Below are positions 402 through 60,831 of a stretch of DNA of 64,000 bases, one piece after another. The stretch lies in assembly GCA_951406725.2 (NCBI GenBank), contig OX597833.1:64108001-64172000 (forward strand), written 5' to 3'. Within the stretch, counting starts at the first letter, position 1; every line of letters starts with the position of its first letter. The DNA is from Octopus vulgaris (Eukaryota). The notes below the pieces were generated by a model. That model saw nothing but the letters and a program-made list of their open reading frames with translations. It was not told the origin of the DNA and searched no databases. The position numbers and the translations under genes are program-made.

Positions 402-472
402 TGTTTCTTTATTAGCCACACAGGGCTGCACACAGATAGAACAAATTACAAGGTAGAGCTTTTCTTTTGAAT

Positions 473-512
<40 letters not shown>

Positions 513-1842
513 GGGGGAGTTTCGATCAAAAGGGATCGTAAAAGGAGAGAAGGAGGACAAAAAAAAGGGGGTTAAAAAAAGGGGGAGAGGAAAAAAAAAA
601 AAAAAAAAAATTGATCAATAGGGATCGTTATCACAGAAATGTCAATATGAAGTGTAAAGGGGAGGACAGGTGAGGTTTACCCGTGGAAAGAAAAGCCTAC
701 GGAAAAGACCACGGTAACCTCGGTCAATGAAGTCACATTTTATATTTCTTTTTTTTTTTTTTTTTTTTTTTGCAAATAAGCAACTCTCTGTTTTCGATTT
801 CTGGGTTCATAGGACTATGCTCAAGGTGGCTTCGTCATTCATACGTGCCATTCTTGCTACATTCACCCATCTTTTTTTAAAACATTCGCTAGACAAAACT
901 TGCCTCTCTACTCTCACTTTCCTTTTCAAGTGGTACTTGAAGAAGTTGATGAGAGATTGACCAGAGAGGAAAGTGTTTGTCTCCAATCCTTTCAGACGCG
1001 TCCACCAGATACATTCTTTCGCCATAGCCACAAGGATGATGAAAATAGCTCTTCCTTCCCGTTTGAAGGAAGGAGGCGTGACAATATTGACGATAGACTC
1101 AGCTGATAAACCGACTCGTCCCACACGTGACAGCAGTTGTTCGACATAAGCCCACAGGTCGGAAATTGTTGGACACTGAACGAGTGCGTGCAGAACGGTT
1201 TCGTCGCTCTGACCGCATCTCGGGCAGGTCGGCCCCGTGTTTCTCGAGCCGTGTCTGTAGAGCTTATCCCGAACGGGTAGCGCTTCTCGGTAGCACTGCC
1301 AGGCCAGGGATCTCTGGAAGTTGTCCATGGGCCCTGGCCCGAAAGTCGTCCTGAACAGGCGGGTCAGGTACTCCTCGTCGACGTCCAGGTTCGCCCCGAG
1401 CTCGTCGTCGTACCTCCCCTCCACTAAACCCCTATAGAATGCTTTGGTTGTGTTGAAGTCACTTAAGGTCGACCCAGGACGGCAGAGTTGCTTGAGAGCA
1501 ACGCGACACTCGCGGTGCCATTCGCCCTTCCTCGGCCTCTTTTTGATCCACGACTGCAGTTCGGTCATGGAGACGAGCTGCGGGAAAGCGTGCCTCACAA
1601 ACGGTGACCACACCTGTTCACCGTCGTCTACATAGAGCCAGAGATGCCGCAGTCTCAGCGCGTGTCTGCGCATCATCAACCACGGCATGCCCAGCCCTCC
1701 TTTTAACGGGTGTTGACAGCAAATGGATCGCCTGACCATCGGGACGCATCCTTTCCACAAGAAGCGAAAGAGGATGCGTTGTAGTTTGGTGATGGTAGGG
1801 TCGGGACAAGGTACGACGGTCAGGCGGTAGTAGATGACGGAC
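401..1842 (-). mobile_element. Tx1/L1-clade non-LTR retrotransposon, 5'-truncated copy 1 (ORF2 C-terminus plus 3' UTR)
   Basis: Open frame 807-~1842 with post-RT LINE motifs (LFRFLWKG, KGGLG.P, LPVRDKLYRHG) and a zf-RVT knuckle CPRC..DETVLHALVQC; ~400 bp 3' UTR ending AATAAAGAAACA then (TATC)n; near-identical to 56603-57681. Confidence 0.9.
807..1842 (-). pseudogene. Uninterrupted C-terminal ~345 aa of LINE ORF2 (post-RT region and zinc knuckle); no true start, EN and RT core missing
   Basis: ORF track 807..1982; its first ~47 aa (YLSI repeats) are microsatellite read-through. Confidence 0.85.
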
Positions 1843-7014: not shown

Positions 7015-7830
7015 CCATAGTGACAGCCACTGTTACTAGTTGTGCAGATGATACAAAATCATCAGAGGCAATAAAGAAACCAAGATCACATCGTAAGCTT
7101 ACAGAGGGACCTGCATTCGATATAGAAGTGGGCAGAAATAAACAACATGCAGATAACTATGTTGACTCTGTGGAGAAGCTTTGTTCTCAGCCGCCTGGAT
7201 TACTTCTCTAATTTATTGTCACCACATAGTGCCAAACTTACAGCGGAGCTTGAGGTAGTCCAACGTCACTACACTAAAAATATTGAAGCAGTGCAGTGGA
7301 AGAGCTACAGGATCGGCTGAGAAAACTGTAACTTTACTCCATGGAGCGAAGGCGTGAGAGATATTCAATAATCTATATATGTAAAACTCTAGAAAGGTTA
7401 ATATCTAATTTCGGATTTTGTGTGTTATACTAATGCTAGGACTGGCCGCCATTGTATTGTGCCAAAGGCACTACCCACTAAATCCAGGTCCAGGTACTGC
7501 AATAATCTAGGATTCAAAGGCCCACGGCTCTTCAATGCCCTGCCACAAAAATTAAGAAATCTGCATAATGTGGAAGTAGATGTCTTCAAAATGGGACTAC
7601 ACCTCCTGCTCTCCATAATAACCTATGAACCAACAGCCCGACATGAGGTGCTGACAAGGATAGCGGAATGTAACTCTCTTATACACCAAATGGGCCAACA
7701 GCTGGGACAGAGGCACAAAAAAGAATGGTGATGAGAAAGGCCCTAGACTGAAGAAATCAGAAGGACCACGGTGGTGTTCAAGTATGACATTAGCCGTATC
7801 AATGAAACGGGTAAAAAATTAAAGGTGTAA
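7015..7830 (+). mobile_element. Degenerate CR1-type LINE 3' fragment
   Basis: Frameshifted RT motifs: CADDTK (FADDTK-like), ERRRERY, GPRLFNALP; same motif order as the CR1 copy at 37878-38719. Confidence 0.8.
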
Positions 7831-9540: not shown

Positions 9541-9569
9541 CTGTTTACTGTCTCGATATTTAGATGATT

Positions 9570-9988
9570 AAGGCGGCAAGCTGGCAGAACCGTTAGCACG
9601 CCGGGCGAAATGCGTAGCCGTATTTCGTCTGTCGTTACGTTCCGAGTTCAAATTCCGCCGAGGTCGACTTTGTCTTTCATCCTTTCGGGGTCGACAAATT
9701 AAGTACCAGTTACGCACTGAGGTCGATGTAATCGACTTAATCTCTTTGTCTGTCCTTGTTTGTCCCCTCTGTGTTTAGCCCCTTGTGGGTAGTAAAGAAA
9801 TAGGTATTTCATCTGTCTTTACGTTCAGAGTTCAAATTCCGCCGAGGTCGACTTTGCCTTTCATCCTTTCGGTGTCGATAAATAAAGTACCAGTTACGCA
9901 CTGGGGTCGATGTAATCGACTTAATCCCTTTGTCTGTCTTTGTTTGTCCCCTCTGTGTTTAGACCCTTGTGGGTAGTAAAGAAATAGG
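9570..9988 (+). mobile_element. SINE-A tandem dimer (full unit plus headless ~184-bp unit) within one 13-bp TSD
   Basis: A box-like AGCTGGCAGAA, B box GAGTTCAAATTCC; junction AAGAAATA|GGTATTTC at 9802/9803; TATTTAGATGATT at 9557-9569 and 9989-10001. Confidence 0.9.
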
Positions 9989-10021
9989 TATTTAGATGAT
10001 TGATAATTAAGATCGATTTAT

Positions 10022-10555
10022 AATGGCCATTGCTAGAAAGGGTATGGCCTGGTCAGTCTGTAATGACATGCATAAGATCTGGTCATCAAATCTAAGTGGA
10101 GACTTCAAACTTGAAATCTTCAAAGCCACAGTCGAACCAATTCTACTATATGGTTCAGAAACCTGGACGTTATCAAAGAAGCTTGAGAGGCGGTTGGATG
10201 GAACCTACACTCGCCTCCTTATGAGAGCTCAAAATCTCTTGTGGAAGCGCCATCTAACCAAAATGCAAATATATGGGAAACTACCACCTGTGTCATCTCT
10301 TGTGAAAGGTAAGAGAGTCCAGTTTGCTGGACATTGTTGTAGAGCTGAAAAAGAGGTAATTTCTCCTCTTCTCCTCTGGAAGCCATCTACTCGCAATACC
10401 AGAGGGCGCACACTCTCCTACTCTGATGTAATCTCCAGGGATACAGGCATCCAGCAACAGGACCTCCGTAATGCCATGATGGACCGTGAAGTCTGGCGTA
10501 ACATAGTAAATTCCATTGTCTCGACCACGGTCGAACAATGATGATGATGATGATG
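10022..10555 (+). mobile_element. RTE-clade LINE 3' fragment with open ORF2 C-terminus and (TGA)n tail
   Basis: ORF 10023..10541: KLEIFKATVEPILLYGSETWTL, QFAGHCCR, AMMDREVWR; stop followed by (TGA)n. Confidence 0.88.
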
Positions 10556-10700: not shown

Positions 10701-11200
10701 ATTTAATGACAGAGCACCGATTACATTTCCAGTGGGTGTGCAAACGCGGTGATTAAATATCTCTCTCAAACATGTACTAACTTTGAACATTTGAGGTTCC
10801 TCTGCGTCTATCTTCTATATAGCTCTTGGCGCATATTTAAGTATAGCAATATATTATATTACACCAGTTGAGTTCTCTAAGGCTATATTTTCCCATTACC
10901 ATTATATCTAAAGATGCTGTGAACGTTATAATGGAAATCCAGCCATGCTTGCTTAGTTAATCCAACAAACTTGCCGTAAATCCTTACACCCCACAAAGGA
11001 ATTACGATTCGGATTTTGAAACGTTGCAGGTGAAATTTGAGTCCCTTCGCTTTTCCTTCAGCTGGGATATGTCAGGTTTCTCTTAAAATGAAGATTTTAG
11101 CCATGAGCGTTGGAAGGTTTTAAAACATTGACTGTTAATGTCGAAAATTTCGATATCTATTCGACAGAGAATACATACTGCACGCCTCCGATATTGATGC

Positions 11201-11570
11201 CGACCCCGAAAGGATGAAAGGCAAAGTCGACCTCGGCGGAATTTGAACTCAGAACGTAACGGCAGACGAAATACGGCTACGCATTTCGCCCAGCGTGCTA
11301 ACGTTTCTGCCAGCTCGCCGCCTTAAATATAGTATATATTTCTTTACTACCCACAAGGGGCTAAACACAAAGGGGACATACAAGGACAGACAAACGGATT
11401 AAGTCGATTACATCGACCCCAGTGCGTAACTGGTATCTATTTAATCGACCCCGAAAAGATGAAAGGCAAAGTCGACCTCGGCGGAATTTGAACTCAGAAC
11501 GTAACGGCAGACAAAATACAGCTACGCATTTCGCCCGGCGTGCTAACGTTTCTGCTAAGTTCGCCGCCTT
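11201..11570 (-). mobile_element. Two SINE-A copies in tandem (11338-11570 full, 11201-11325 3'-truncated)
   Basis: Reverse complement of the SINE-A consensus; short AT-rich spacer between copies. Confidence 0.88.
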
Positions 11571-11981
11571 TTCTTATACCTTCATATATCTACCCAGTAA
11601 ACTTCATATGGCTACCCATGTAAAATCCCACTTTATTATAACAATGGCTTTGTTTACCAGCACACTCAACACCACGGGTTTCATGGTGTGACAGAAGCAT
11701 TAGAATGACGAGAAAGCCAAAATCCTAACACTACGGTATTGAAGCAGGCTCTTTAAATATTGAATTCAAGTCCAGTCGAGGGTAACTTTTTATATCTTGT
11801 CCTTTAGGGTCGTTAAGACATAAAATAGAGTAGCAGTCTCAGTGCTGAAGACGATATAATCGAATAAAACAAATGGTGGCCATCTGACTAAATGAGAAAC
11901 AGTTGTTTTCGAGCACGGGCGTACAGAAGAGAATATCGATTTCAACGAAATTTGAACGCAGAACACGTGACTAAATATCTG

Positions 11982-12211
11982 TTTCTTTACTACCCACAAG
12001 GGGCTACACACAGAGGGAACAAACAAGGACAGACAAACGGATTAAGTCGATTACATCGGCCCCAGTGCGTAACTGGTACTTAATTTATCGACCCCGAAAG
12101 GATGAAAGGCAAAGTTGACCTCGGCGGAATTTTGAACTCAGAACATAATGGCCGAAGAAATATGGCTACGCATTTCGCCCGGCGTGCTAACGTTTCTGCC
12201 AGCTCGCCGCT
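11982..12211 (-). mobile_element. Full-length SINE-A
   Basis: Reverse complement of the SINE-A consensus. Confidence 0.9.
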
Positions 12212-12529
12212 TAAATTATCGTTTCTTAACTTACTGTCGTAAATAACGGGAAGTTATACGTAACGAAACAATATTGTCCCTTAAATATGCAAGCTTATAG
12301 TTAAAGGTGGAGAAACATAAAATAATAAGTGTGCTCAATCAAGCTTGATGTGAGTGTTAAACGACTTTAACAACAACGACAGCAATACAAAAGAAACATG
12401 TTTAAATTTACATGAAAAACAAGAACACTTACATACATGAAGACAGAATATTAATGATATACTTATTAAATATTTAAAGTTCTGTGTTAAGAGACCAAAA
12501 TAAGGAAAATACATACATACATATATATA

Positions 12530-13213: not shown

Positions 13214-14040
<827 letters not shown>

Positions 14041-18330: not shown

Positions 18331-18459
18331 ACTAAAGACCACCAAAGTCCAAGAGATGTCCGAAATAAATTACCACTGATTAATACAGTAATCCCTGTCC
18401 ATATCACGGTCCACCTATCGTGGTATATTATTTATATATATATGCATGTATATGTCTCT

Positions 18460-18915
18460 ATGTCTGTGTTTGTCCCCACAACATCGCTTGACAACTGATA
18501 CTGGTGTGTTAAAGGCCCTGTAACCTAGCGGTTCTGCTAAAGAAAAAGGCGGCGAGCTAGCAGAATCGTTAGCACGTCGGGCGAAATGCCTAGCAGTATT
18601 TCGGCTGCCGTTACGTTGTGAGTTCAAATTCCGCCGAGGTCGACTTTGCCTTTCATCCTTTCGGGGTCGATAAATTAAGTACCAGTTAAGCACTGGGGTC
18701 GATATAATCGACTTAATACCTATGTCTGTCCATGTTTGTCTCCTCTATGTTTAGCCCCTTGTTGGTAATAAAGAAATAGGTTCTGCTAAAATAACCGACA
18801 TAATAACTGCTAGGCTTACAAAGAATAATTCCGGGTGTCGATTTGCTCGACGTAAGGCGGTGATCCAGCGTGGCTGCAGTCAAATGACTGAGACTAATAA
18901 AAGAATAAAAGAATA
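18460..18915 (+). mobile_element. SINE-B 3' half interrupted by SINE-A
   Basis: CATCGCTTGACAACTGATACTGG.. resumes after 18790 and ends with the (TAAAAGAA) tail. Confidence 0.8.
18546..18778 (+). mobile_element. Full-length SINE-A with 12-bp TSD
   Basis: GGTTCTGCTAAA at 18530-18541 and 18779-18790. Confidence 0.92.
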
Positions 18916-20727: not shown

Positions 20728-21319
20728 AAATATATATATGTATATACGTATCTATATATACACACACAAATATATATATATACACTATATATACATATAT
20801 ACAGACAGAATATCTATAGCAATTTTCTCTACAGTTCATTATCCGCACCCACCCACCCCCACCACTTGTCCTACACATACACAGGAGAACACATAAACAC
20901 GTTCACACGTAAGCACATGCTTTGCTGCAAGCACAAAATAGACCAGCACACACATTTTTTCTCTCATTTATTCCTTCCTCTCCGCTGCCCCTTCCTCTTC
21001 AAAAACTCTTCATCTCTCATTTATCATAATTCAACTTATGACTGGAATTGGTCGTTTGTTTTGCGTTTATATTCCTCTATGATGTTCTAACCCAGACAAT
21101 CGGGCGACGTGCAATTCTCTCTCACTTGTTTTTGTTCGTGCTTCATTCTGTCCCGTTTTCTTTTGTTGCTGTAGTTGTTTTTTTTTATTATTGTTGTTGT
21201 TTTTGTGTTTAAAATCGTATTTATTTAAAAAAAATCTTAATTGTTATTGATTTAAAATAGAGGCACAAGGACGTAGACCAAATCACTGGAACAAGCAGAA
21301 TATAAACGATAATGATAGA

Positions 21320-21540
21320 CATTGATTTCAGACGTTGCCATAGGGCCAGACATTATGGGGGAGGATATAGGTCGATTACATCGACTCCTGTGTTTAACTG
21401 GTCCTTTGTTTTAACGCCTCCCGAAAAAGTAAAATACAAAGTGTATCTTGGCAGAATTAGAACTCAGAACGTAGAGACAGGCGAATCGCTGCTAAGCATT
21501 TTGCCTGGTGCGCTAACGATTTCGCCAGTTTACCGTCTTA
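21320..21540 (-). mobile_element. Old diverged SINE-A-related copy (alternative tail)
   Basis: GTCGATTACATCGAC..AACTGGT..GAACTCAGAACGT..GCTAACGATT. Confidence 0.7.
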
Positions 21541-21573: not shown

Positions 21574-22122
21574 TATTTCTTTATTGTCTACAGGGGGCTA
21601 CCTCATAGAGGGGACAAACAAAGACAGACAAAGGGATTAAGTCGATTACTTTGACCCCAGTGCATAACTGGTACTTATTTAATCGACACCGAAAGAATGA
21701 AAGGCGAAGTCGACTTCGGCACAATTAGAACGCAGAACTTAAAGACATACGAAATACCTATTCCTTTACTACCCACAAGGGGCTACACATAGAGGGGACA
21801 AACAAGGACAGACAAAGGGATTAAGTCGATTACATCGACCCCAGTGCGTAACTGGTACTTAATTTATCGACCCCGAATGGATGAAAGGCAAAGTCGACTT
21901 CGGCAGAATTAGAACTCAGAACTTAAAGACAGACGAAATACCTATTTCTTTACTACCCACAAGAGACAAACAGGACAGACAAAGGGATTAAGTCGATTAC
22001 ATCGACCCCAGTGCGTAACTGGTACTTAATTTATCGACCCCGAAAGGATGAAAAGCAAAGTCGACCTCGGCGGAATTTGAACTCCGAACGTAAAGACAGA
22101 CAAAATACCGTTAAGCATTTCG
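21574..22122 (-). mobile_element. SINE-A tandem trimer
   Basis: Junctions GAAATACC|TATT at 21758/9 and 21942/3; ~184-bp period. Confidence 0.9.
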
Positions 22123-22975
22123 AAAGCAACGCAGAGCGGATAAATGCAAAATTCCTCTCGGTTTAGAATCGAACTGGAAAGCAGAGGGGCGATGGGTATT
22201 CATACCTTTTGCTAATGTCACCACATTCCCAAATTTGCCAGTCCACTATAAATCATTCTGACACACTAACGATTTCACTCAGTCCAATGCCATTTTGCCT
22301 GGCACCATTTTGTTCGACGCATCACCAATCCTAACGATCTAACGATCTACGAAGCAGCGTAGGATGTGCGAAATTCTGATAAAGAATTCTAGACTTGAAT
22401 ATAATTATGATAAATTCAAACACTTGATTCTGGTGTTCTTAAAATAAAATATCAATCGAGCAATGAGGGACATTTAAGCCGAGTCTACCCTTCTTCCATT
22501 TGTGATGCCTTGTGTCTACGTTAGAAGTTGGGAGCGGTTTATTGGCATTTTACCGCAGTAAATACGGAAATAGATTTATTTATCTCTTTTTATGCTCTGA
22601 ATGCCAAATACCACTCGATACAAATTTTGTTGATATCATTGGCAGAGTTAATACCAGAAGCACTATAAAAGACTCCGATTAAATGAGATTAACCATGAAA
22701 TTATTAGATAAAAAGAAATTACTTCTGGGAATGTTGAATATCTAAAATATAACATACAAGGGAGATAACTTTAATAAAAAAACAATTATGCTAATTTGGG
22801 AAAATAGACATGTATTGCAGACATAATTTATTTAGGGATTTAGGACTCTTTAATTAAGGGTCGGGGCTTGGTAGAATAAGTAGCGTAATGAACCAATTAG
22901 CTTGATATATTTAGCTACGAGCTTTAACGTTCTCAACTGATCCAAATTTGTATTTCATGTTTGCAAACGATCGAT

Positions 22976-23741
22976 AAGGCGGCGAGCTGGCAGAAACGTT
23001 AGCACGCTGGGCGAAATAGAAAGCGGTATTTCGTCTGCCGTTACGTTCTGAGTTCAAATTCCACCGAGGTCGACTTTGCCTTTCAACCTTTCGGGGTCGA
23101 TAAATTAAGTACCAGTTACGCACTGAGGTCGATGTAATCGACTTAATCCCTTTGTCTGTCCTTGTTCGTCCCCTCTGGGTTTAGCCCCTTGTGGGTAGTA
23201 AAGAAATAGGTATTTCGTCTGCCGCTACGTTCTAAGTTCAAATTCCGCCGAGGTCGACTTTGCCTTTCATCCTTTCGGGGTCGATTAAATAAGTACCACT
23301 TACGCACTGGGGTCGATGTAATCAACTTAATCCGTTTGTCTGTCCTTGTTTGTCCCTTCTCTGTTTAGCCCCTTGTGGGTAGTAAAGAAATAGGTATTTC
23401 GTCTGTCGTTACGTTCTGAGTTCAAATTCCGCCGAGGTCGACTTTGCCTTTCATCCTTTCGGGGTTGATAAATTAAGTACCAGTTACGCACTGGGGTCGA
23501 TGTAATCAACTTAATCCGTTTGTCTGTCCTTGTTTGTCCCTTCTCTGTTTAGCCCCTTGTGGATAGTAAAGAAATAGGTATTTCGTCTGTCGCTATGTTC
23601 TGAGTTCAAATTCCGCCGAGGCCGACTTTGCCTTTCATCCTTTCGGGGACGATAAATTAAGTACCAGTAACATACTGGGGTCGATGTAATTGACTGTCCC
23701 CCTCACCCCAAATTTCGAGCCTTGTGCCTAGAGTAGAAAAG
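22976..23741 (+). mobile_element. SINE-A tandem tetramer (one head, four bodies; last unit has the alternative tail)
   Basis: Junctions AAGAAATA|GGTATTTCG at 23208/9, 23392/3 and 23576/7; exact 184-bp period. Confidence 0.93.
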
Positions 23742-24249
23742 TTTTTATATGTATAAGTGTTTGTTGTTGCTATTGCTATTGTTTAACCCAAAGTTGACCC
23801 TGGATGAGATTTCTTTTTTAATTAAAGGTATTCCTGTTGTGTAATAAATCGTATTGTCTTTTTAATCATAATGCACTTCAACTATGTTTTTCAATACATT
23901 ATAATGTGATTTAAGCCTTGCTGGCTGCCAGTTTTAAAAGGCCAAATAACCTGTTAAAGCACCTGTCTGCATTAGTAAAAAAATTGTAGATTTAATTACG
24001 TTCTTTAAATTTCTGATCTTCTAATTAGGACATCGTTAAGAAGAGTGAATTAGTAGAAACGTGCGTGACCATGGACGTCTATGCATTATAACTATCCTGG
24101 GCTGTAAAGTACAATATTTTGGCGGCCTTGTATGTTTCTGGTAGTGTCAGGCTTTTCTCAAAGAGAAGTTGTCACTACCCACACGACAAACCCTTCACCA
24201 CGTGTTGAGGAAGAGGCATTGTGAGTCTAATTGTGCAGAGTCGAGGATC

Positions 24250-28535: not shown

Positions 28536-28849
28536 TTTTGGGGTCTTCTTTGGGGGGGATTTTATCCCCACTGATTGATTTTTCTTCTTTCTTTTTTTCC
28601 TTCCTTTTCTTTCTTTTTTTTTTTTTTTGTCTTTCTTCACATTGGCAAAATGCCCGAAATTTGCAAATCTTGGGATAGCAAACGGTGCTGCTGGGTTGAG
28701 GGCAACAGATCATATCGAGACCAGCATTTGAACGGTATTTTATTTAATTGACCCTTGAAGGATCAAGGTAAGGCTTTATTTCAAGCGAATTTGAATTGAG
28801 ATTATCGTAATTGGATTAAATACACGCTGAACACCGAAAACATATACTA

Positions 28850-28930
28850 TACAGATGGTCCATAAATTATCTTTACAATTACAATTATGAAAATTTATAA
28901 ATTGCCAAGATAATTTATGGACGGCCTTTA
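28850..28930. mobile_element. ~80-bp palindromic mini-MITE (Tc1-like ends)
   Basis: GTCCATAAATTATCTT..CAATT versus AATTG..AAGATAATTTATGGAC inverted arms; TACAG start. Confidence 0.55.
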
Positions 28931-29164
28931 TTATTGCTATCGAGACATGATGTAATGATTACCGTGCCGGACAAACATACTTCGCGACGTTCTTTTGGCC
29001 TGACGTTTTGAGTTCAAATGCTTCCGTGGTCAACTTTGATTTTTTTTCGTTTCGGTGTCGATAAAACAAGTACCAGTTGAGTACTGTGGTCGATGTAATC
29101 GACTTACCACCTGATTGAAATTGCAGGTCTCGTGGCAAATTCTGAAATCCTCCAGATTTCTTCA

Positions 29165-34470: not shown

Positions 34471-35370
34471 CGACACACAACGGTTGTTATCAATACTAAT
34501 ATAAGCCGGCCATTTCCCAGGTGAATGCTACATTCTTCTTCTCTTTTAGTTTGCGTTGAATATCTTTGGAAAAACTGACGTGAATTAGGAAAACAAGAAT
34601 CACATCATCATCATCATCATCATCAACAACAACAACAACAACAACAACTTTAGCAGAAAAAGAAAGCACAAAAAGAAAATACCAAAAGATGAGTAAAAGT
34701 AAAAAAAAAATAACGACACGAAACGGAAAACTGACATATTACCAAGGGGTACCTGATGTAACCGAATTTAATGAGGGCCCGGAATAATCTTACGTGGTTT
34801 ACAAGACTCTTGCAAATGATATGCATATTATAAATATATATATATAGTTCGATGTGAACATTCGTAGCCTTGTGGTTAGGGGCAATGATCTCGTATGCTA
34901 GTTTGTTCGTGGGTTCGGTCTCCGGTCCAGGAATTACGCGGAGGGAGACTTGTCTGTAGAATACTCTGTCGACCGACTCACCACTGCTTTCCAGTATACG
35001 CATGAGGCCCAAGATTTTGATGGCAAACGAGGATTAGCCTGTGTTATCGATCTCAGTACTTAACGAGGTACTTTAGTTTCATCGGCCCAGGATGGCAGCA
35101 TCGTAATGTGTTCCTTGATGGTATTTGATCTCAGAATATAAAATGGTTTCAAATGTTTGCACCAGGCCAGTATTTTCGGTATACCTCAATTACAGGTACA
35201 CTAGTGGCATTTATTTTATCGACCCCGAAAGAATGAAAGTCAAAGTCGACTTCAACGGCATTTCAATTGAGAACAAATTGTCGGAAGAAATGTCACTAAG
35301 CATGTTGTCCGGAGCGATAACAGTTCTGCCAGCTCTCCGCCCTCACGTCGGAAAAAAATATTAAGCATTT

Positions 35371-35538
35371 AAGGCGGCGAGCTGGCAGAAACGTTAGCAC
35401 GTTGGGCGAAATGCTTAGCGGTATTTCGTCTGCCTTTACGTTCGGAGTTCAAATTCCGTCGAGGTTGACTTTGATTTTCATCCTTTTAAGTACCAGTTAC
35501 GCACTGGGGTCGACATATATATCAACCCCAGTGCGTAA
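35371..35538 (+). mobile_element. SINE-A with an internal deletion and a terminal fold-back inversion
   Basis: AAGGCGGCGAGCTGGCAGAA head; inverted repeat at 35497-35538. Confidence 0.85.
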
Positions 35539-35546
35539 ATAGCACG

Positions 35547-35698
<152 letters not shown>

Positions 35699-36264
35699 AC
35701 CATTGTTCATTTCATTAATGGAACGCTAAGTTCATTCAAATTCCGCTGAGGTCGACTTAGCTTTCTATCTTTTGAAGGTCGATAAAATAAAGTCCCAATC
35801 ATGTATTAGACTTCATTTGATTTACTCTCTTTCTCTCCTAAAATTTCGGGCCTTATTCCTATAGTAGAAAAGATTAAAGAGCTCCACGATGAGATGTAAT
35901 TTGGCCCGTTGGCGAAGTCGTTAGAGTTTTATGAAAGATTGTTCAATGCTAATATTTCTGAGACACATACAATGTAAGTTCAACTCCTTGTTTTTCCTTC
36001 CAGGCCGTTAAATGAAGTAGGAATTCAGAAGTGGAAATAAGTTTTCTAATTCTGTCTGTTTCTGAGTTTTTCTGTCGTTCTAGAAAAAATTTAATTTGGT
36101 CAGGTTGGTTGTGGAATATAGACCTTCAAGTTTAAAATTATGCGCAAGACATTTACGATTCTATCAAAAGTCATTGAGGACCGAAGATAAGGTAAGGATA
36201 TGACCTGATATTAGTCATATGGTCTGATGGAAGGAGCGGCTTCGATCTAGGTGGCAGAGGAAGT

Positions 36265-37879: not shown

Positions 37880-38719
37880 TTTGATACTTTGATACTTTGA
37901 TAGGTTTCGGCCATTATTGGCCCAGGCCATGTCTAACTTAATAGCACCACCTGGTGAAGTCTTTCAAGTCAGAATTTGGGCACTATGGCCCACTCAAGTA
38001 GAGAGTTATTGTTTACAGAGACATATCCGGGTGTAGGGGGTTTATCCGGGATTTCTTGAAGGAATCTGTCCAAAGACTTCTTGAACCCTATAGGGTCAGT
38101 TTCTGTTTTAATGTGTTTTGGTGTAATGTTAAAGAGAGCGGGGCCAATTGAGGTGAAATAATTGTGCCGTATTGTTGTTATGAGATGAGAGTGCGATTTT
38201 TGTTTTGGGCGGATGGCACGGGGCCCAAGCCTTGGATGTACCTTAAAGGTGATGCCAACATCATTTGGGCAATGCTGATGGAATATTTTCCACATCATGC
38301 AGATGATGTAGCGCTCACGACGACGTTGGAGAGAATAGAGTTTTAGCTTTTCTAGTCGACCCCAATAGTCGAGGCCTGTCATGCCATCTATCTTTTTTGT
38401 GATTGCCCTTTGAGGTGCTTCGACTTTTATGATACCTTGTATTGTGTGGGGAGACCACAGTGGACAACAGTATTCAAGGTGGGGTCGGGCAAAAGTGGAG
38501 AAGAGAAGGATAATGGTGTGGATATCTCTCGACTGGAAAGTTCTGAGAATCCAGGAACACATTCTGCGGGCCATGTCAACTTTGGTGTTTATATGAGTGG
38601 CCCAGCTTACGTTGTTGTCCACAATTACTCCCAAGTCTCTGATGTTGTTGGACGCCGCGAGAGTTTCACCTGAAGGAAGGGAGTATGGGAGTTTCAGGGC
38701 ATCCTCTTTTCCAAAGTGG
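37878..38719 (-). mobile_element. CR1-clade LINE, 5'-truncated, open ORF2 C-terminus, (TATCAAAG)3 tail
   Basis: ORF 37969..38634: DLGVIVD, RPHLEYCCPLWSP, LYSLQRRRERY, GPALFN; (TA)n on both sides. Confidence 0.9.
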
Positions 38720-38929
38720 ATATATATATATATATGCGTGGATGTGTGTTTGTGCTCGTGCGTATTTATTCGAACCTATACATGCCATCTCTTAAACAGA
38801 CATATCTACCTATAAAATCATACCTATGTATTTTGAATTAAATATACATAGACCTTGTACGTACATACACCTAAATAAACTCCTCCATGCATTAAAATAC
38901 ACACACACACACGTATATGTATATATGTG

Positions 38930-40125: not shown

Positions 40126-40467
40126 TGTTATTGATGGTCATGTCTAGAGAGGCTCCATGTTACGTCAGAAAATTTGCATTTCTGTATTTTTTTTTTGTCT
40201 ATGCTAATTCAAATTCCATCGAGGTCGATATAACCTTGGGTCCCTCCGGGGCCAATGAAAAAAAATATCAGACAAGTACTGGGGGTTCATGATACGGACT
40301 AAACTCCTCATTTAAACATCAGTTGGCCTGGCCTTGTGCTGAGATCAGAAACCAAGCGTTCTGATTGGTAGAATCGTTAGACCATTGTAATAATAATCGC
40401 CTGCATTATTCAGTATAGTTGTTCTTTGTTCAAATCCTGCCGAGCTCAATTCAGCTTTTGTTATAAA

Positions 40468-41240: not shown

Positions 41241-41403
41241 ATTTCGTATAAATAAGTAGCAGTTACGCACTGAGGTCGGTGTAATCGACTTAATCCCTTC
41301 CCCAAATTTCAGGCTTTGTGCCTGCAATAGAAAGGATCATTCGAAGAAGACGAGGAAGTACTGGAAATAGTAGCAGTAGTAGTAATAGTAGTAGTAGTAG
41401 TAA

Positions 41404-45952: not shown

Positions 45953-46794
45953 CGTTATAAGGTCGTAAAGGTATTTAGGCAGTACACCTGTCTGTCCAGC
46001 TGTCGAAAAGTATCATCAGAGAACTATGCATGGGCGAGAACCTCTGCATAAGCACCCCTATACACTCGCCTTCCGCGTATACTCAGACAGACAGCTGATT
46101 AAATCGATACCAGTGTATAACTGGTAATTTATTTTGACGACCCTGGATGAAGAGAAAATCGAACGAATCTCAGCAGAATTTGAACAGAGCACACGAAGAA
46201 TCAGCTAAGACGCTGCAAGGCGTTTTTTTCTCCCCTCTCCGCCGTTTCTGACATTTCGCCACATGAAATGAATCTAGTGATTATAAATAAAATGGTAATG
46301 GAATATATGACAAAAGTGAATGTATAAACAGTGAACGGCGATGGTGGTGGCGATGCTTTAGCCTCTGGGTCAACACTGATTGAAGCAAACCAATTAGTAT
46401 TGATGGAGTGTAATAGTGTGTATTAGTGTGGCGGACGCGTGTTTATCAGCTTTGCGTATGTATGCCTGACTGTGCGGGAGTGTGTATGAATGTGCGTGTT
46501 CCTACTCCATGTGTTTTTGTCTCTATTTGTATGTATATATATGAGTGACACACACACACACACGCAACGCAGACGCATGTATGTATTCTTATATAAATAT
46601 ATATGTATAGAGTAAGATACATGCATATATATATATACATACATATATACATATATATGTAAGTATATATATATATATACATATATCTATAAATATATAT
46701 ACATACATACATATAAATATATATATACATATATACGTATATCTATAACTATATCTATATCTATCTATGTATATATGTATGCATACATATATAC

Positions 46795-50859: not shown

Positions 50860-51386
50860 TATTATTACGGCTTTTTTTTCAGCAAATTTTATTCAATAAA
50901 AATAATAACAGTATTTAACAAAAATATCTTTAAATGACGGTCTGGCCGTTTGCCAAGCAAATGGGAATCAGTAATTGAAGTAGATGGTGAATATGCTCCG
51001 GAACAATCATTTAAAGATGATTTCGTTACATGTTGTTATTGTTTTTGTCGAATATCATTAGTTGACAAAAAAGCCGCAATAATTATGCACCAACCCAATA
51101 TATATAATACATTATATATAGTACATCGCCATTTTATATTTGGTTGGTTCATAATTATTGCATAATTATTGCATTTTTCAACAATTTATATTCAACAAAA
51201 AACAATTAAAATATTTCACAAAAACATCTTTAAATGACGGTCTGACCGTCTGCCAAGCAGTAATTGAAGTAGATGGTGAATATGCTCCAGAATAATCCTT
51301 TAAAGATGATTTTGTTACATGTTGTTATTGTTTTTGTCGAATATCATTTGATGAAAACAAAAAAAACCACAATCATTATGCACCAT
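50860..51386 (+). mobile_element. Two tandem mariner-derived MITEs (~50860-51099 and ~51137-51386)
   Basis: TIRs TTGGTTGGTTCATAATTATTGC / GCAATAATTATGCACCAACCCAA|TA; transposase C-terminus LPSKWESVIEVDGEY. Confidence 0.78.
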
Positions 51387-51743: not shown

Positions 51744-51873
51744 TTTTTTCCTTTCCTTTTTATGATTTCTTTTGATCGAAAACCTACCACACTTTTTTTC
51801 TCCCCTAAAAGAAAAGCTTTACTTTGTAATTTGTGCCGGCTGTGTTCAGCCCTGTGTGGCTGATAAAGAAACA
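51744..51873 (+). mobile_element. Tx1-like LINE copy 3 (terminal ~130 bp of 3' UTR, diverged)
   Basis: TTTTGATCGAAA..AAAAGAAAAGCT..TTGTAATTTGT..CAGCCCTGTGTGGCTGATAAAGAAACA then (TATC)n. Confidence 0.85.
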
Positions 51874-53206: not shown

Positions 53207-54501
53207 GTCCCTCTGCACATACTTACATACATACATACTTACGTACATACATATATACATACATACGTACATGCAAGTATACTTACATATACATGTGTAT
53301 ATATATGTGTTTGTGTACATATATATATATATATATAAAAATGATATATATATCTATATATATATTAAATGATATATATAATGTGTATATATGAATGCTT
53401 GTATGTATATACGTATATATGTATGTTTATGTGTGTGAGTGTGTACACATATGTCTACATACATGCTCACGCGTACAAATATATATTTACATATCTCCAT
53501 ACATATATGTATGTACACACACACACACACACACACAAACACACACATATATATATATGTATATATATATATATTTGTGTTACTTTGTGCATGTGTATAT
53601 ATACGCATATAATTATATATTTACACAGATGCACACATACATATATATGTTTGCGTATGTAAGTACACCTCAACATATCTATATATGTATGTGTGTATGT
53701 GTGTGAGTGTGTGTGTGTGTGTTTGTGTGTGTCTTATACTATATTACATATATTATATTAGCTTGTTCAACGAAGGAATTACAATAGGCTTGTAAGCCTA
53801 TAGAATACAGAAGCCATTGTGGAGTTGGATTCAGTAGTTATCTTGTGACACTTGATAGAAGCAGACTGGAAGGAAGAATGGTAACGTGAGCTAAACCAAT
53901 TAAATCTTACACAAACCATTCGACATACAATGGCTGCTACCGTTATTCATGTTGTTCTAGAGGCTGCAGGTTATCCGACATTCAATAGATTTGTGATCAA
54001 AAGTTGTTCTACCATTTTACACTGTCGCGTTAATATTTTATGCAACAATATCTAACGCAGCCATCTTGTTTATTATTTGTTTACCTCGAGGTCGGCCATG
54101 ATTGACCTGAGCTGATCTGTAATAGAATGCGTTACTCGTGGACATATCAGTCATGTTCTTTTCCAGGCATAATGTATCTAGGACAGCATTACACAATGTG
54201 CGCTTCTTTTGTAGCTGTTGTTTAGATGTGGTCAAGCGTGAAGCGTAGAATGATCAAAGGGGTTTCCATCCTTGCCTGTTCTCTTTGCTTCGTTTCAATC
54301 ATGGACCATCAAGCATTACATCATCCGACCTGTTATTCCCTATTGCTTAACCTCATTACAATATATGTGATCTGTCGGAGGCCGTGAGGTGTCAGAGTCG
54401 TAAGCATACCGGACGAAATGCTTATCGGAATATAGTCCGTCTTGATTTTCTGAGTTCATATTCCGTCGAAGTCGACTTTGTTTCACATCCTTTCGAGGGT
54501 A

Positions 54502-54699
54502 TACTCTTTACTCTTTTACTTGTTTCAGTCATTTGACTGTGACCATGCTGGAGCACCGCCTTTAGTCGAGCAAATCGACCCATAGGACTTATTCTTCGTA
54601 AGCCTAGTACTTATTCTATCGGTCTCTTTTGCCGAACCGCTAAGTGACGGGGACGTAAACGCACCATCATCCATTGTCAAGCGATGTTGGGGGGACAAA

Positions 54700-54741
<42 letters not shown>

Positions 54742-54997: not shown

Positions 54998-55954
54998 TTA
55001 AAATAAATACCATTTGAACTCTAGGGTAGATGTAATCTACCCTACACCACCCTAAAAGTGCTGGAGTTGTGCTAAAGTTTGAAACCGATATATTTATTCT
55101 GTTTATTCCCGTATGATTATAGTAAGAAGCTATTTGAGAGTGGTTTGGTAGGTATTTCTAGCAGGATGAGTAAAGACGAAGGTACTCGTTCGTTGACCTT
55201 ATATATTGATTATCCTTGACTCATTTTTGCTTTTAAATAATCTAGTTAATTAAATTTATTTATGTCTGTTTTCGGGAGAAAGGGTTTGTGATTGTGACCT
55301 TCCCATATTGTCTAAGATTGGTCGATAGATATCTTAATGTTCAACGTTAACTTTAATGCATCAATATTTGTAGCAAAATAAAGGTAGGAAGTATGGAATT
55401 AAAATTGGGGAGTGGCGCTTGTTGAGGCCTGCAGGGCAAGATTTTACTGATTAATCATAAAAGTCCTACATTTTTTGAGAGGAAAATGAGATAACATTTC
55501 GCCCCTGTTGATCATTTATATCAATAATGTGCAATACGTTGGATGATTATGGCTAATGATACAGCTTGCCTTGGGCTTATCGCTTCTTTAATAGCGTCGT
55601 TCACCCGGTCGTAGAGGAAAAAAAAAGACGCTATAATTATAGCAGAGAAGCGGGTAGAGGTTGGGGTGAGGGCAAAGTGAATTAGAAATTATTTCTAAAA
55701 GTGTTTAAGTGAATTTAAGTGTTTTGAGTACAACTTAGAACTTTGGTTACAGGGTTGGCTCAGCGGGATTTTAAACGAAGTTTAAATGTTTGTGTCACTC
55801 CCATTCATTAAAGATTCCGAGCTAATTCATAATTTGATGTTTCACTTTATAACAGACAAAAAAGTATGTTGGTGTATCTGTTTTTTCTAAAAGTGCCGCA
55901 GCACTTTGGAAATAATTCTTTGTAATGTCTGCCCGAAACATGGAAAAATTGGAA

Positions 55955-56345
55955 AGCGGTAGTAATTGATTATATTGACACCAGTACATGACTGGTATTT
56001 ATTTTATCAATACTGACAGGATGAAGAGCAACATAGACCGTGGAGGCATTTGAACTTAGAAGGTAGAAAGCCAAAAGAAAAGCCACTAAGCATTTTCATC
56101 TATGTGTTCATGATTCTGGTAGGCCACCATTTTGGAAATATTAATTCCATATTTTGATACAAGGCCAGCAATTTCGAAGAAGGGGTTAAATCGGTTACAT
56201 CGACCCACCCCATCACCGTGCAGCTGGTACTTATTTTATTGACCCCAAAAAGAATGAACGGCAAAGTGGACGTCGGTGGGATTTGAACTCAGAACGTGAG
56301 AGACGGATGAAGTGTCGCTAAGCATCTTGCCCAGCCTGCTGTCGA
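55955..56345 (-). mobile_element. Two old SINE-A-related copies
   Basis: CTGGTA(C/T)TTATTTTAT..GATGAA..ATTTGAACT(C/T)AGAA occurs twice. Confidence 0.7.
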
Positions 56346-56456
56346 TATAAAGAACTAGTTTTCGTTATGGCATGGATATAAATGAGTGAAGAAGATCCTT
56401 GAAATATGTGGTCCAGTATGGCACTGGTACTAAGTCTGGAAGCAGAGAAGAATAAA

Positions 56457-56602: not shown

Positions 56603-57681
56603 GCGAGTGTCGCGTTGCTCTCAAGCAACTCTGCCGTCCTGGGTCGACCTTAAGTGACTTCAACACAACCAAAGCATTCTATAGGGGTTTAGTGGAGGGG
56701 AGGTACGACGACGAGCTCGGGGCGAACCTGGACGTCAACGAGGAGTACCTGACCCGCCTGTTCAGGACGACTTTCGGGCCAGGGCCGATGGACAACTTCC
56801 AGAGATCCCTGGCCTGGCAGTGCTACCGAGAAGCGCTACCCGTTCGGGATAAGCTCTACAGACACGGCTCGAGAAACACGGGGCCGACCTGCCCGAGATG
56901 CGGTCAGAGCGACGAAACCGTTCTGCACGCACTCGTTCAGTGTCCAACAATTTCCGACCTGTGGGCTTATGTCGAACAACTGCTGTCACGTGTGGGACGA
57001 GTCGGTTTATCAGCTGAGTCTATCGTCAATATTGTCACGCCTCCTTCCTTCAAACGGGAAGGAAGAGCTATTTTCATCATCCTTGTGGCTATGGCGAAAG
57101 AATGTATCTGGTGGACGCGTCTGAAAGGATTGGAGACAAACACTTTCCTCTCTGGTCAATCTCTCATCAACTTCTTCAAGTACCACTTGAAAAGGAAAGT
57201 GAGAGTAGAGAGGCAAGTTTTGTCTAGCGAATGTTTTAAAAAAAGATGGGTGAATGTAGCAAGAATGGCGCGTATGAATGACGAAGCCACCTTGAGCATA
57301 GTCCTATGAACCCAGAAATCGAAAACAGAGAGTTGCTTATTTGCAAAGAAAAAAAAAAGAAATATAAAATGTGACATCATTGACCGAGGTTACCGTGGTC
57401 TTTTCCGTAGGCTTTTCTTTCCACGGGTAAACCTCACCTGTCCTCCCCTTTACACTTCATATTGACATTTCTGTGATAACGATCCCTATTGATCAATTTT
57501 TTTCCTCTCCCCCTTTTTTTAACCCCCTTTTTTTTGTCCTCTTTCTCTCCTTTTACGATCCCTTTTGATCGAAACTCCCCCTTCCTTTTTTTTTTTTTTT
57601 TTTTTAAACGTTCAAAAGAAAAGCTCTACCTTGTAATTTGTTCTATCTGTGTGCAGCCCTGTGTGGCTAATAAAGAAACAT
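56603..57681 (+). mobile_element. Tx1/L1-clade LINE, 5'-truncated copy 2
   Basis: ORF 56692..57309 matches copy 1 except D->N; same 3' UTR; (TATC)n on both sides. Confidence 0.92.
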
Positions 57682-58305: not shown

Positions 58306-58877
58306 CATAAGTATGCATCTGTATAGAGTTATGTAGACACATAGTGTATGCAGACATATGTGTATTGTAATTTGCAAAACTTAAACCGAAACAATAATGA
58401 AACTACGATGCCAGACGGAATAAACTGGCATCGTTTTTGTTGGACTCTGTATTAAATACTGTACAACTTCATTAGCTGCTACGGTTTACCTTTGACTTAT
58501 AATCAACCCTCTAGGCTCGATAAACTAAATGTTCAATCTTAATTCAATTTGATTACATACCATCCCCTAAACCTGGTTTAGCTTAGTGCCAATACAAGAA
58601 ATCAATACGCACCATATGTACGTAGATTTCACCATATTTTAGCAAAGGGAGCAGCAGATAATTCCTTCGATTGATATATTAAGGTGAAACCTTTCTATGA
58701 GCTTTCGTTGCTTTTCCGACTGTCATTCCATTGCCTGGCGAACGAAAAGAGATTCTATAATCGTTATTCAAAATGGCGTCCACTAAAATCAGCGGTCGGT
58801 CATAAATAGACAGGATAATAAGGACGAATGAAGCATTTTGAGGAAGACCACACAGCGCCTATATGATCCCTCAGTTA

Positions 58878-59370
58878 AAGGCGGCGAGCTGGCAGAAACG
58901 TTAGCACGCCGGGCGAAATGCTTACCGGTATTTCGTCTGTCGTCACGTTGTGAGTTCAAATTCCGCCGAGGTCAACTTTGCCTTTCATCCTTTCTGGATC
59001 GATAAATAAAGTACCAGTTGCGTACTGGGGTCGATCTAATCGACTTATTCCCTTTGTTTGTCCTTGTTTGTCCCCTCTGTGTGTAGCCCCTTGTGGGTAG
59101 TAAAAAATATATAGGATGGCTGTTATGTAAGGCGGCGAGCTGGCAGAAACGTTAGCACGCCGGGCGAAACGCTTAGCGGTATTTCGTCTGCCGCTACGTT
59201 CTGAGTTCAAATTTCGCCGAGGTCGACTTTGCCTATCATCCTTTCGGGGTCGATAAATAAAGTATCAGTTTCACACTAGGGTCGATGTAATCGACTTAAT
59301 CTCTTTGTCTGTCCTTGTTTCCTTGTTTGTCCCCTCTATGTTTAGCCCCCTTGTGGGCAATAAAGAAATA
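58878..59370 (+). mobile_element. Two full-length SINE-A copies plus ~20-nt spacer within one 16-bp TSD
   Basis: TATATGATCCCTCAGT at 58860-58875 and 59371-59386. Confidence 0.92.
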
Positions 59371-59657
59371 TATATGATCCCTCAGTGTATTTTTTGCTGG
59401 TCAGTGTAGTGCCTAGCTAGGCGGCGACACTGCGCAACTTAAAAATATAAATGTGGGCGAGAGAAATATTTGCGTCACACCTCATCGATTGCATACCTTA
59501 CGTGACTTCGACATAAGAGATGACACAGCCTTGGATAATAAGACGTTGTCAGAGCAAAATAATTTAGACGAGAACAATGAACCTCACTTCCTAGAACATA
59601 TTATCTAAGCCACCTTTAAAACAAGAAATACAATTGCAAAACAGGAGGGTGTACTGA

Positions 59658-59893
59658 AAGGTAGCGAGCTGGCAGAAACGTTAGCACGCCGGGCGAAATG
59701 CTTAGCGGTATTTCAGTCTGCTGTTTACGTTCTGAGTTCAAATTCCGCCGAGGTCAACTTTGCCTTTCATCCTTTCGAGGTCGATAAATTGAGTACCAGA
59801 TACGCATTGGGGTCGATGTAATCGACTTAATCCCTTTGTCTGTCCTTGTTTGTCCTCTCTATCTTTAGCCCCTTGTGGGCAATAAAGAAATAA
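59658..59893 (+). mobile_element. Full-length SINE-A with 12-bp TSD
   Basis: GAGGGTGTACTG at 59645-59656 and 59894-59905. Confidence 0.92.
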
Positions 59894-59935
59894 GAGGGTG
59901 TACTGGATAATAAATTCCAAAATATAATCTGTTTG

Positions 59936-60260: not shown

Positions 60261-60278
60261 CACGGTATAGAATGGGTG

Positions 60279-60505
60279 CGAGCTGGCAGAATCGTTAGCA
60301 CGCTGGGCGAAATGCGAAGCCGTATTTCGTCTGTCGTTACGTTCCGAGTTCAAATTCCGCCGAGGTTGACTTTGCCTTTCATCCTTTCGGGGTCGATAAA
60401 TTAAGTACCAGATACGCACTGGGGTCGATGTAATCGACTTAATACCTATGTCTGTCCTTGTTTGTCCCCTCTGTGTTTAAGCCCCTTGTGGGTAATAAAG
60501 AAATA
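60279..60505 (+). mobile_element. SINE-A with 15-bp TSD
   Basis: GGTATAGAATGGGTG at 60264-60278 and 60506-60520. Confidence 0.92.
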
Positions 60506-60831
60506 GGTATAGAATGGGTGAATATGTTATTCGCAAATGTTACGGGTGTCGTTTGAGACAGATTTGGAGAGGATTTCTAAGCAAATCGAGGGGGTGTATG
60601 GAGGATCTCTCGTAAATGTACGCGGATTAGGGATTTAGCTTAGTGCTGCAAAGACCAGTATTAAATCTAGCTTCTTGCAAGATTAAGGGTTCACGAGTCT
60701 GTGGAGTGCTCAGCCACTTGCAGGTTAATTTCACGAGCAGGACGTTGCGTTGATCGGATAAACTGGAATTTTGGTCGCCGAAACGAAGGAGTTCCGGTTA
60801 TCTTCGTACAAAGTCTAGTTATACAACCCAT

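Follow-up and report, generated by a model that had tools for sequence, protein, structure and literature searches.

Self-targeted insertion with local exchange as the favoured account of head-to-tail SINE arrays in Octopus vulgaris

Several described systems resemble, each in part, the tandem SINE arrays that we analyse here in a single 64-kb stretch of DNA from Octopus vulgaris (64,000 nucleotides, referred to as the window), which provides all of our sequence evidence. In crocodilians, the available text of PMC4494074 describes how a Tx1-group LINE, Tx1-Mar, mobilises the SINE family SINEU, with a target preference that is inherited, another repeat as the target, and tandem copies that arise by sequential insertion. 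These features have probable counterparts in the octopus, but SINEU targets Mariner, carries a target duplication between its tandem copies and has poly(A) tails (PMC4494074, in the same portions), whereas the octopus target lies within the SINE itself and the later units are headless, without spacer or poly(A). The squamate sSat arrays, in the accessible parts of PMC10702118, are likewise built of tandem repeats that do not reach the length of the SINE (70-290 nt), apart from a single longer unit at the end, and the same unit recurs at many loci. These parts explain them mainly by unequal recombination, merely mention insertion at the same locus, and propose no endonuclease site inside the SINE; in the octopus, by comparison, the upstream units end at the exact retrotransposition end and lineages are mixed. 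Of the features that characterise sSat, units shorter than the SINE and a longer terminal unit are found here, while four or more middle units and homogenised long arrays are not, the longest array in the window, the scope within which array length was judged, having four units in total.

The bivalve HCD-SINEs with the arrangement TSD-(SINE)n-TSD, as far as the available text of PMC11481361 describes them, are also arrays of a mollusc tRNA SINE within one duplication, with a head on the first unit and later units truncated at the head at one position. Their first and middle units, however, lack part of the tail, as a result of internal duplication, whereas the octopus upstream units are tail-complete. 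Among autonomous elements, R1 builds head-to-tail arrays by serial site-specific insertion, and annealing of R1/R2 cDNA to the upstream target is proposed to give precise 5' joins, as we propose here (PMC2718515, in excerpt); in SART1 and R1Bm, the 3' part of the RNA can base-pair with target DNA at the nick (PMC7265360, in excerpt). According to the same excerpts, these elements differ in being autonomous and in using host targets (rDNA, telomere) outside the element, and R1 arrays contain full units with a spacer duplication, unlike those of the octopus SINE. In the literature covered (subscription papers and Repbase/Dfam lie outside this coverage), we found no report of this octopus array or of a SINE that targets its own internal site. 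Compared with the known tandem SINE arrays, the new features are a target located within the element and a period that extends from this target as far as the precise 3' end used in retrotransposition.

The window is AT-rich and dense in microsatellites. The SINE is a short, non-coding, interspersed repeat with 15 intact tails and more than 30 profile matches in the 64 kb. Its unit of 233 nt, present at full length in the first unit of the tetramer (Q1), comprises a tRNA-like head, a conserved core and a LINE-related tail, and its 3' end is AAAGAAATA in the 15 intact tails (with a single-base change in three), without a poly(A) or simple-repeat tail. Two alternative tails occur on the common core, the other type being found at 41295-41335 and 35825-35878. 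A motif search places an A-box-like motif, named by analogy with Pol III promoters, at family positions 13-20, and a B-box-like GAGTTCAAATTCC was read by eye from the alignment at positions 75-87, where the strict B-box pattern finds no match. ARAGORN predicts no tRNA gene in the window, and Rfam gives no tRNA match in 22900-23800. For this array alone, Rfam returned one match at chance level (E 2.7); for the whole window, among the 150 of 374 matches listed, all were microRNA models on microsatellites, below the gathering score. The family majority sequence contains no run of four T. In its tRNA-like head, common core and two tails, the family resembles the octopus tRNA SINEs of Deu/Nin type (OR1/OR2) and may be one of them; motif searches in the literature gave no match to it. 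For O. vulgaris, the available part of PMC13282606 lists tRNA-Deu SINEs and active L1-Tx1, and that of PMC4758252 places OR2 among the CORE SINEs.

The features of the arrays are as follows (a slash marks a cut or junction).

22976-23208, plus strand: unit Q1 of the tetramer, full length, 233 nt
22988-22995, plus strand: A-box-like motif, family positions 13-20, confined to first units
23021-23031, plus strand: self target site C/GGTATTT, cut 23024/23025, family positions 49/50
23050-23062, plus strand: B-box-like motif, family positions 75-87, in every unit, read from the alignment
23209-23392, plus strand: unit Q2, positions 50-233, of a lineage common to the copy at 11337-11570
23393-23576, plus strand: unit Q3, positions 50-233, with four variants in its 3' half common to Q2
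23577-23741, plus strand: unit Q4, with the common core starting at position 50 and the other, older-type tail beginning near 23695
23742-23746, plus strand: T5 run directly 3' of the tetramer, a candidate Pol III terminator
9570-9802 and 9803-9986, plus strand: units D1 and D2 of the dimer, junction 9802/9803
9557-9569, plus strand: 13-bp target duplication of the dimer, second copy at 9989-10001, flanking the whole dimer
21574-22122, minus strand: trimer, with units T1 (21943-22122), T2 (21759-21942) and T3 (21574-21758)
11980-12213, minus strand: full-length young copy whose tail joins an old remnant in register
11892-11979, minus strand: the old remnant, starting at position 50

The initial annotation had described three arrays with a period of 184 bp, in which six junctions join the tail to one internal position, and two measures agree with it. 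TRF finds the period of 184 at 9620-9993 (2.0 copies), 21588-22109 (2.9) and 23018-23690 (3.7), and the pattern AAG[AG]AATAGGTATTTC occurs six times in the window, at 9795, 23201, 23385 and 23569 on the plus strand and at 21950 and 21766 on the minus strand, with five exact occurrences of AAGAAATAGGTATTTC. At all six junctions, the exact SINE 3' end is joined to position 50, so that the roughly 50 nt earlier said to be absent from later units are precisely 49, and the junction falls, as described, between the A-box-like (13-20) and B-box-like (75-87) motifs. In each array a single unit carries a head, and those after it begin at position 50; the head-bearing unit of the trimer, T1, lacks positions 1-36 and starts at 37, and is the unit that a tail deletion reduces to 167 bp. 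The differing tail reported for the last tetramer unit is also borne out: near 23695 the sequence changes to the tail type of 41295-41335.

A seventh in-register junction was found where the copy at 11980-12213 meets the remnant at 11892-11979, with 9 of 12 bases equal to positions 50-61. The remnant is recognised by nhmmer with E 1.2e-10, using a profile built from window copies, and its local alignment score of 43 compares with a maximum of 34 in 5000 shuffles, 2 of 4895 random 80-mers reaching 43. Of the 15 intact tails, seven thus lead into a family member at its position 50, three into an unrelated GGT, three into TATA and two into other sequence, and the seven of 15 are not due to chance. 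No target duplication longer than 6 bp was found at the trimer, the tetramer, 11337-11570 or 11980-12213. Two local features were observed beside the junctions: in the tetramer head, four adjacent substitutions (23018-23021, positions 43-46) just 5' of the self site produce the tail-like GAAATAG, and at each junction (23203-23216, for example) the tail GAAATA is the reverse complement of the adjoining TATTTC, which gives rise to a small hairpin resembling the one in the head.

The array units differ from one another at 8-33 of 184 sites, and at 8-29 within one array. The downstream partners are heterogeneous, with young, old, other-tailed and very old copies among them: T3 carries 27 changes in 184 sites, compared with a total of 50 in 1271 sites for the seven other array units with the same tail (p=1.5e-7), and the remnant behind 11980, though still in register, has diverged much further. 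The core of Q4 compares with the other tetramer units at 8/118 versus 13/354 changes (p=0.19), and D1 and D2, with six and seven changes, are equally young, differ at 12 of 184 sites and have no variant in common. The age difference implied by the initial suggestion that young units were added in front of an older copy is clear at the trimer and the 11980 locus, not significant in the tetramer and absent from the dimer. A downstream partner that varies in age and type fits insertion into residents, and not one ancestral dimer or circle; the heterogeneity of the partners argues against a single ancestral dimer. By their variants, D1 is linked to the copy at 60279 and D2 to T3, and since D2 and T3, both last units, have three variants in common, there could be some shared descent between them. 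The unit tree proposed earlier (15 rows, leaving out four partial or other-tailed rows) is mostly unresolved, with one of 12 inner branches strongly supported and no clade of first or junction-bearing units, and the expected age gradient appears at the trimer and the 11980 locus. Viewed as a possible fixed dimer of the Alu kind, the partners are mixed and form no position-specific clades, but in a poorly resolved tree and with the variants that D2 and T3 share.

Neighbouring units also carry traces of exchange. T2 and T3 have five variants in common in positions 50-95 and one afterwards, while Q2 and Q3 have four in common in positions 146-233, where they differ at one of 88 sites; among 171 pairs, three exclusive shared variants occur only in these two. 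Since neighbours share variants over half a unit, the six junctions are not the independent events they had been taken for, and some units represent local duplication or conversion. Counting the 11980 locus, we arrive at four loci and about four to six insertion events. A simple duplication as the full origin of Q3, with its 5' half from Q4 and its 3' half from Q2, was considered and is not favoured: Q3 and Q4 have no variant in common and differ at 7 of 96 sites, compared with one of 88 for Q2 and Q3 (p=0.07), which makes conversion as likely as duplication for Q3. An old other-tailed copy 35 bp behind the trimer (21313-21539, minus strand) has the rare A81T and C87T in common with T2 and T3, through local conversion or chance.

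The insertion preference of the SINE can be read from target duplications. Among nine loci examined under 11 boundary settings, five have such duplications, which measure 12-16 bp and start no more than two bases from the tail end. Three belong to monomers.

18546-18778, plus strand: monomer with a 12-bp duplication, 18530-18541 / 18779-18790, site TAGC/GGTTC, inside another repeat
60279-60505, plus strand: monomer with a 15-bp duplication, 60264-60278 / 60506-60520, site CAC/GGTAT
59658-59892, plus strand: monomer with a 12-bp duplication, 59645-59656 / 59894-59905, site ACA/GGAGG

The preference is defined by five sites outside the family, one of which (D) bounds an array; from -1 to +5 they read CGATAT, CGGTTC, CTATAT, AGGAGG and CGGTAT, and the self site reads CGGTAT. 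Summed over the five sites, 21 of 30 bases agree with the self hexamer, where 7.5 are expected and none of 1,000,000 random draws reaches 21. When a matrix of the five sites is run along both strands of the family majority sequence, position 50 (C/GGTAT) ranks first of 456, and it keeps this rank in 25 of 28 combinations of width and left-out sites, falling to 3, 4 and 6 in the other three. C is found at -1 in four of the five sites (p=0.004); because the SINE RNA has A at this position, the bias is not RNA-templated and points to the nicking enzyme. GGT begins three of eight non-self 3' junctions (p=6e-5), and CGGTAT occurs eight times in 5.8 kb of SINE versus nine times in the remaining 58 kb. 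The array junction thus resembles any other SINE 3' junction, which provides support for self-insertion that is independent of the arrays.

The strength of the preference can also be set against the number of self insertions. Matrix weights summed over the window predict a self share of 1-6%, or 5-21% on the assumption of 25 perfect copies, while at least four of 12 events are self insertions (p 2e-5 to 0.005; 0.003 to 0.24 in the generous case). Sequence preference alone therefore probably under-predicts the self-insertion rate, although with a matrix this crude the discrepancy is a hint only. Candidates for an additional factor are read-through RNA, discussed below, and structure: the cut at 49/50 coincides with the 3' edge of the apical loop in a long predicted head hairpin. 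Hairpin tips as a general target were considered and found no support: the five non-self sites include one clear loop cut (18530), one weak fold (60264) and three with no such structure. The copy at 18546 splits another repeat family (18424-18543 and 18779-18909, matching 54507-54721) at TAGC/GGT, the same seven bases as at the self site, within a small hairpin that has the same loop.

The self site is itself a CpG and is often lost, G50 being absent from six of 13 young heads (four C, one T, one A) and C49 from one.

9619, 11275, 11520, 12164, 60321, 18595 and 14527: self-site changes in young heads

A lineage with G45/C50 comprises four to five copies and possibly represents escape from self-insertion, which raises the question of SINEs that evolve away from their own target.

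The SINE tail is related to that of a LINE present in the same window.

402-1842, minus strand: 5'-truncated L1-group LINE (zf-RVT) in (TATC)n, with a tail related to the SINE tail
56603-57680, plus strand: second copy, again in (TATC)n; further 3' ends at 51873 and 52198 (plus strand)

SINE and LINE tails agree in 38 of 50 columns, with a score of 51 against a shuffle maximum of 26 (0 of 5000 shuffles reach the score). The LINE ORFs match zf-RVT in Pfam with E 3e-8 and 2e-8, and a relative with 69% identity matches L1 ORF2p with E 1e-50 versus R2 with 1e-24. Protein matches to the LINE fragment number three, at 69%, at 62% (Argonauta hians) and a short one to an Octopus bimaculoides model, and the protein atlas names the fragment merely zf-RVT or putative transposon. 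The window copies lack RT and EN; the LINE is likely a member of Tx1. The two long copies encode a nearly identical protein stretch, which suggests that the LINE was recently active. The two 3' fragments (51873, 52198) lie in tandem. All four LINE 3' ends lie in (TATC)n, and both long copies have (TATC)n upstream too, reminiscent of Kibi and Koshi, which the available text of PMC4494074 presents as microsatellite-specific Tx1 families. Of the 15 SINE tails, by contrast, none lies in (TATC)n, though the window offers 347 such sites; from this avoidance it would follow that a sister LINE mobilises the SINE, or that the RNA behind the tail sets the target.

We regard self-targeted insertion combined with local exchange as the best account of the arrays, and as a rather probable one. 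The tRNA-headed SINE would use the machinery of an L1/Tx1-group LINE, a partnership suggested by the tail that they share, and reverse transcription would start at the SINE end, which is the same in the 15 tails apart from single-base variants. The nick would be made with the loose preference for C/GGTAT-like DNA that is observed at the five non-family sites. As the best site within the SINE is 49/50, new copies would land in resident ones, whether young, old or other-tailed. The cDNA, being homologous to the resident head and the duplicated target, could then complete the 5' join by annealing, which would leave one head and a period of 184 bp. Arrays would grow and homogenise via duplication or conversion between neighbours, exchange of this kind being visible in Q2/Q3 and T2/T3. 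Without an internal terminator, arrays can probably also be transcribed and re-inserted as multimers, perhaps raising the self-insertion rate.

The initial annotation had offered, as the first of two options, repeated site-specific insertion of the SINE into its own tRNA-derived region with homology-mediated 5' joining. Its site-preferring self-insertion gains support, in that non-self targets resemble the self site and partners are heterogeneous and in part older, while the homology-mediated joining is suggested by the missing second head. Plain insertion at 49/50 would be expected to preserve the head of the resident alongside that of the new copy, together with a short duplication, an arrangement seen at none of the four loci. 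No old head of the resident was detected upstream of the 11980 copy (best p=0.06 of six settings), and none upstream of the trimer (p=0.13). The missing head could be due to annealing of the cDNA to homologous upstream DNA, or to later collapse of a 64-bp direct repeat; annealing to upstream DNA has been proposed for R1/R2 transcripts that carry upstream target sequence (PMC2718515, in excerpt). Since the head of the dimer is of the D1 lineage, the resident head would have been replaced, with the join somewhere 5' of position 45. This part of the account is its weakest link, and is least comfortable for the very old resident behind 11980. Other observations that weigh against the account are the equal youth of D1 and D2, the Q4 core that is not significantly older, the contrast between the (TATC)n target of the window LINE and the sites of the SINE, the excess of self insertions over the prediction, and the variants that D2 and T3 share.

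A SINE carrying its own preferred site could plausibly lead from dispersed repeats to satellite DNA, and an internal retrotransposition target is a testable answer to where the first duplication comes from and why the unit boundary is common to several loci. With seven of 15 window tails at the self site, thousands of events would be expected genome-wide, from which target choice, pairing between RNA and primer and homology-driven 5' joining by Tx1-type machinery acting in trans could be measured. Annotation is affected too, in that headless units would be mistaken for a satellite or for a subfamily of their own.

Two pairs of copies with spacers bear on the insertion of multimers.

58878-59370, plus strand: head-to-tail pair of full-length copies separated by a 19-nt spacer (59110-59128), in one 16-bp duplication, 58860-58875 / 59371-59386
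11198-11570, minus strand: head-to-tail pair with full heads, formed by the copy 11337-11570, a 12-nt spacer and a 3'-cut copy, 11198-11324; no duplication found

Both spacers begin with TATA. As the first pair lies under one 16-bp duplication, multi-unit insertion has occurred at least once. Its spacer, which is probably the duplication of the source locus, agrees with the new target at 9 of 12 bases, as do about 1% of TATA-starting sites. Such a match is as expected if a 3' extension of the RNA pairs with the primer, and pairing of RNA 3' sequence with a nicked target has been proposed for SART1 and R1Bm (PMC7265360, in excerpt). One could tentatively speculate that the SINE is self-homing and RNA-guided, in the sense that read-through RNA pairs with the nicked target and thereby picks the site, a possibility to which we lend limited credence. 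Array transcripts, carrying SINE sequence behind every tail, would home to any resident copy, and this feedback would turn a dispersed SINE into satellite seeds, with the G50C head lineage as an escape variant. The hints in this direction are the 9/12 spacer match, the disregard of (TATC)n, the excess of self insertions and the two bases that precede the duplication copies of the dimer, which are GA upstream and GG downstream.

Among the alternatives to self-targeted insertion, the one that survives best, though we consider it unlikely, holds that the junction has one origin or very few, followed by spread through retroposition of read-through multimer RNA, whole or in part, or through ectopic conversion of monomers by existing arrays; the GGT-starting targets of monomers would then stem from RNA 3' extensions that pair with the primer. 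It is consistent with a unit that lacks T4 and a T5 run directly after the tetramer, with the single duplications that flank the whole dimer and the 58878+59129 pair, with the GG at the dimer 3' end compared with GA in the upstream copy, with the three variants of D2 and T3, and with self insertions above most preference-only estimates. It is harder to reconcile with downstream partners of four different ages and tails, with the absence of a clade of first or junction-bearing units in the weak 15-row tree, and with a C bias at -1 that is not RNA-templated. The tree being weak, such spread retains some probability, and it may act on top of self-insertion.

Template jumping, in which SINE RNA is cut in the loop at 49/50 and the reverse transcriptase, on reaching the end of the 184-nt fragment, switches to the 3' end of another SINE RNA, strikes us as improbable. 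The cut position at the 3' edge of the predicted apical loop, the single head per array and the ability of the tail GAAATA to pair with the TATTTC just past the junction would all suit it, and jumping is described for R2 (PMC2718515, in excerpt). However, none of 13 aligned non-junction copies starts at position 50 (the starts are 1, 7, 16 and 37), and the likeness of unrelated targets to the self site is left unexplained. Very old, other-tailed RNAs would be required as first templates, along with acceptor RNAs that end exactly at AAATA, where there is no terminator.

Duplication purely at the level of DNA, whereby a monomer in front of GGTATTT slips between the internal GGTATTT and its flank and unequal crossover expands the product, we judge very unlikely overall. 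The 3' flank of the dimer is indeed GGTATTT, neighbours that share variants do reveal exchange at the DNA level, and arrays from internal duplication have been described for squamate and bivalve SINEs (PMC10702118 and PMC11481361, in their available parts). For the trimer and tetramer, which do not end in GGTATTT, this explanation is already contradicted, Q4 being other-tailed and T3 far older than its neighbours; in the dimer, the 12 of 184 sites at which D1 and D2 differ and their lack of any common variant also speak against it. The second option of the initial annotation, rolling-circle reverse transcription of a 184-nt circular RNA, would explain the exact unit length and junction, with the ligated junction in a small hairpin loop, but is scarcely credible, given that units differ at 8-33 sites (8-29 within one array) with no variants shared over whole units, that lineages and tails are mixed within arrays, that Rfam, for its known families, finds no ribozyme in 22900-23800, that the circle would lack the A-box-like motif, and that neither a self-cleaving ribozyme at the boundary nor near-identical units, the features by which retrozymes are recognised, are seen.

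Some further repeats were observed in the window. Old, strongly diverged members that share the SINE core lie at 55904-56357 (minus strand), 28643-29164, 34985-35140, 40206-40354, 46037-46262 and 54379-54498; most of those with a preserved tail have the other tail, and two stand head-to-tail at 55904-56357. Two copies of opposite orientation, one old and one young, stand back to back at 35137-35545; the young copy has an internal deletion, and at its end part of its sequence is repeated over a short distance in inverted form. Open frames at 10011-10541 (plus strand), 37969-38775 (minus), 7402-7731 (plus) and 13458-13820 (minus) look like C-terminal pieces of other LINE clades, possibly RTE- and CR1-like; Pfam returned no family for the ORFs 10011-10538 and 37972-38775. 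Finally, about 500 bp at 50861-51385 form a self-matching inverted and direct repeat.
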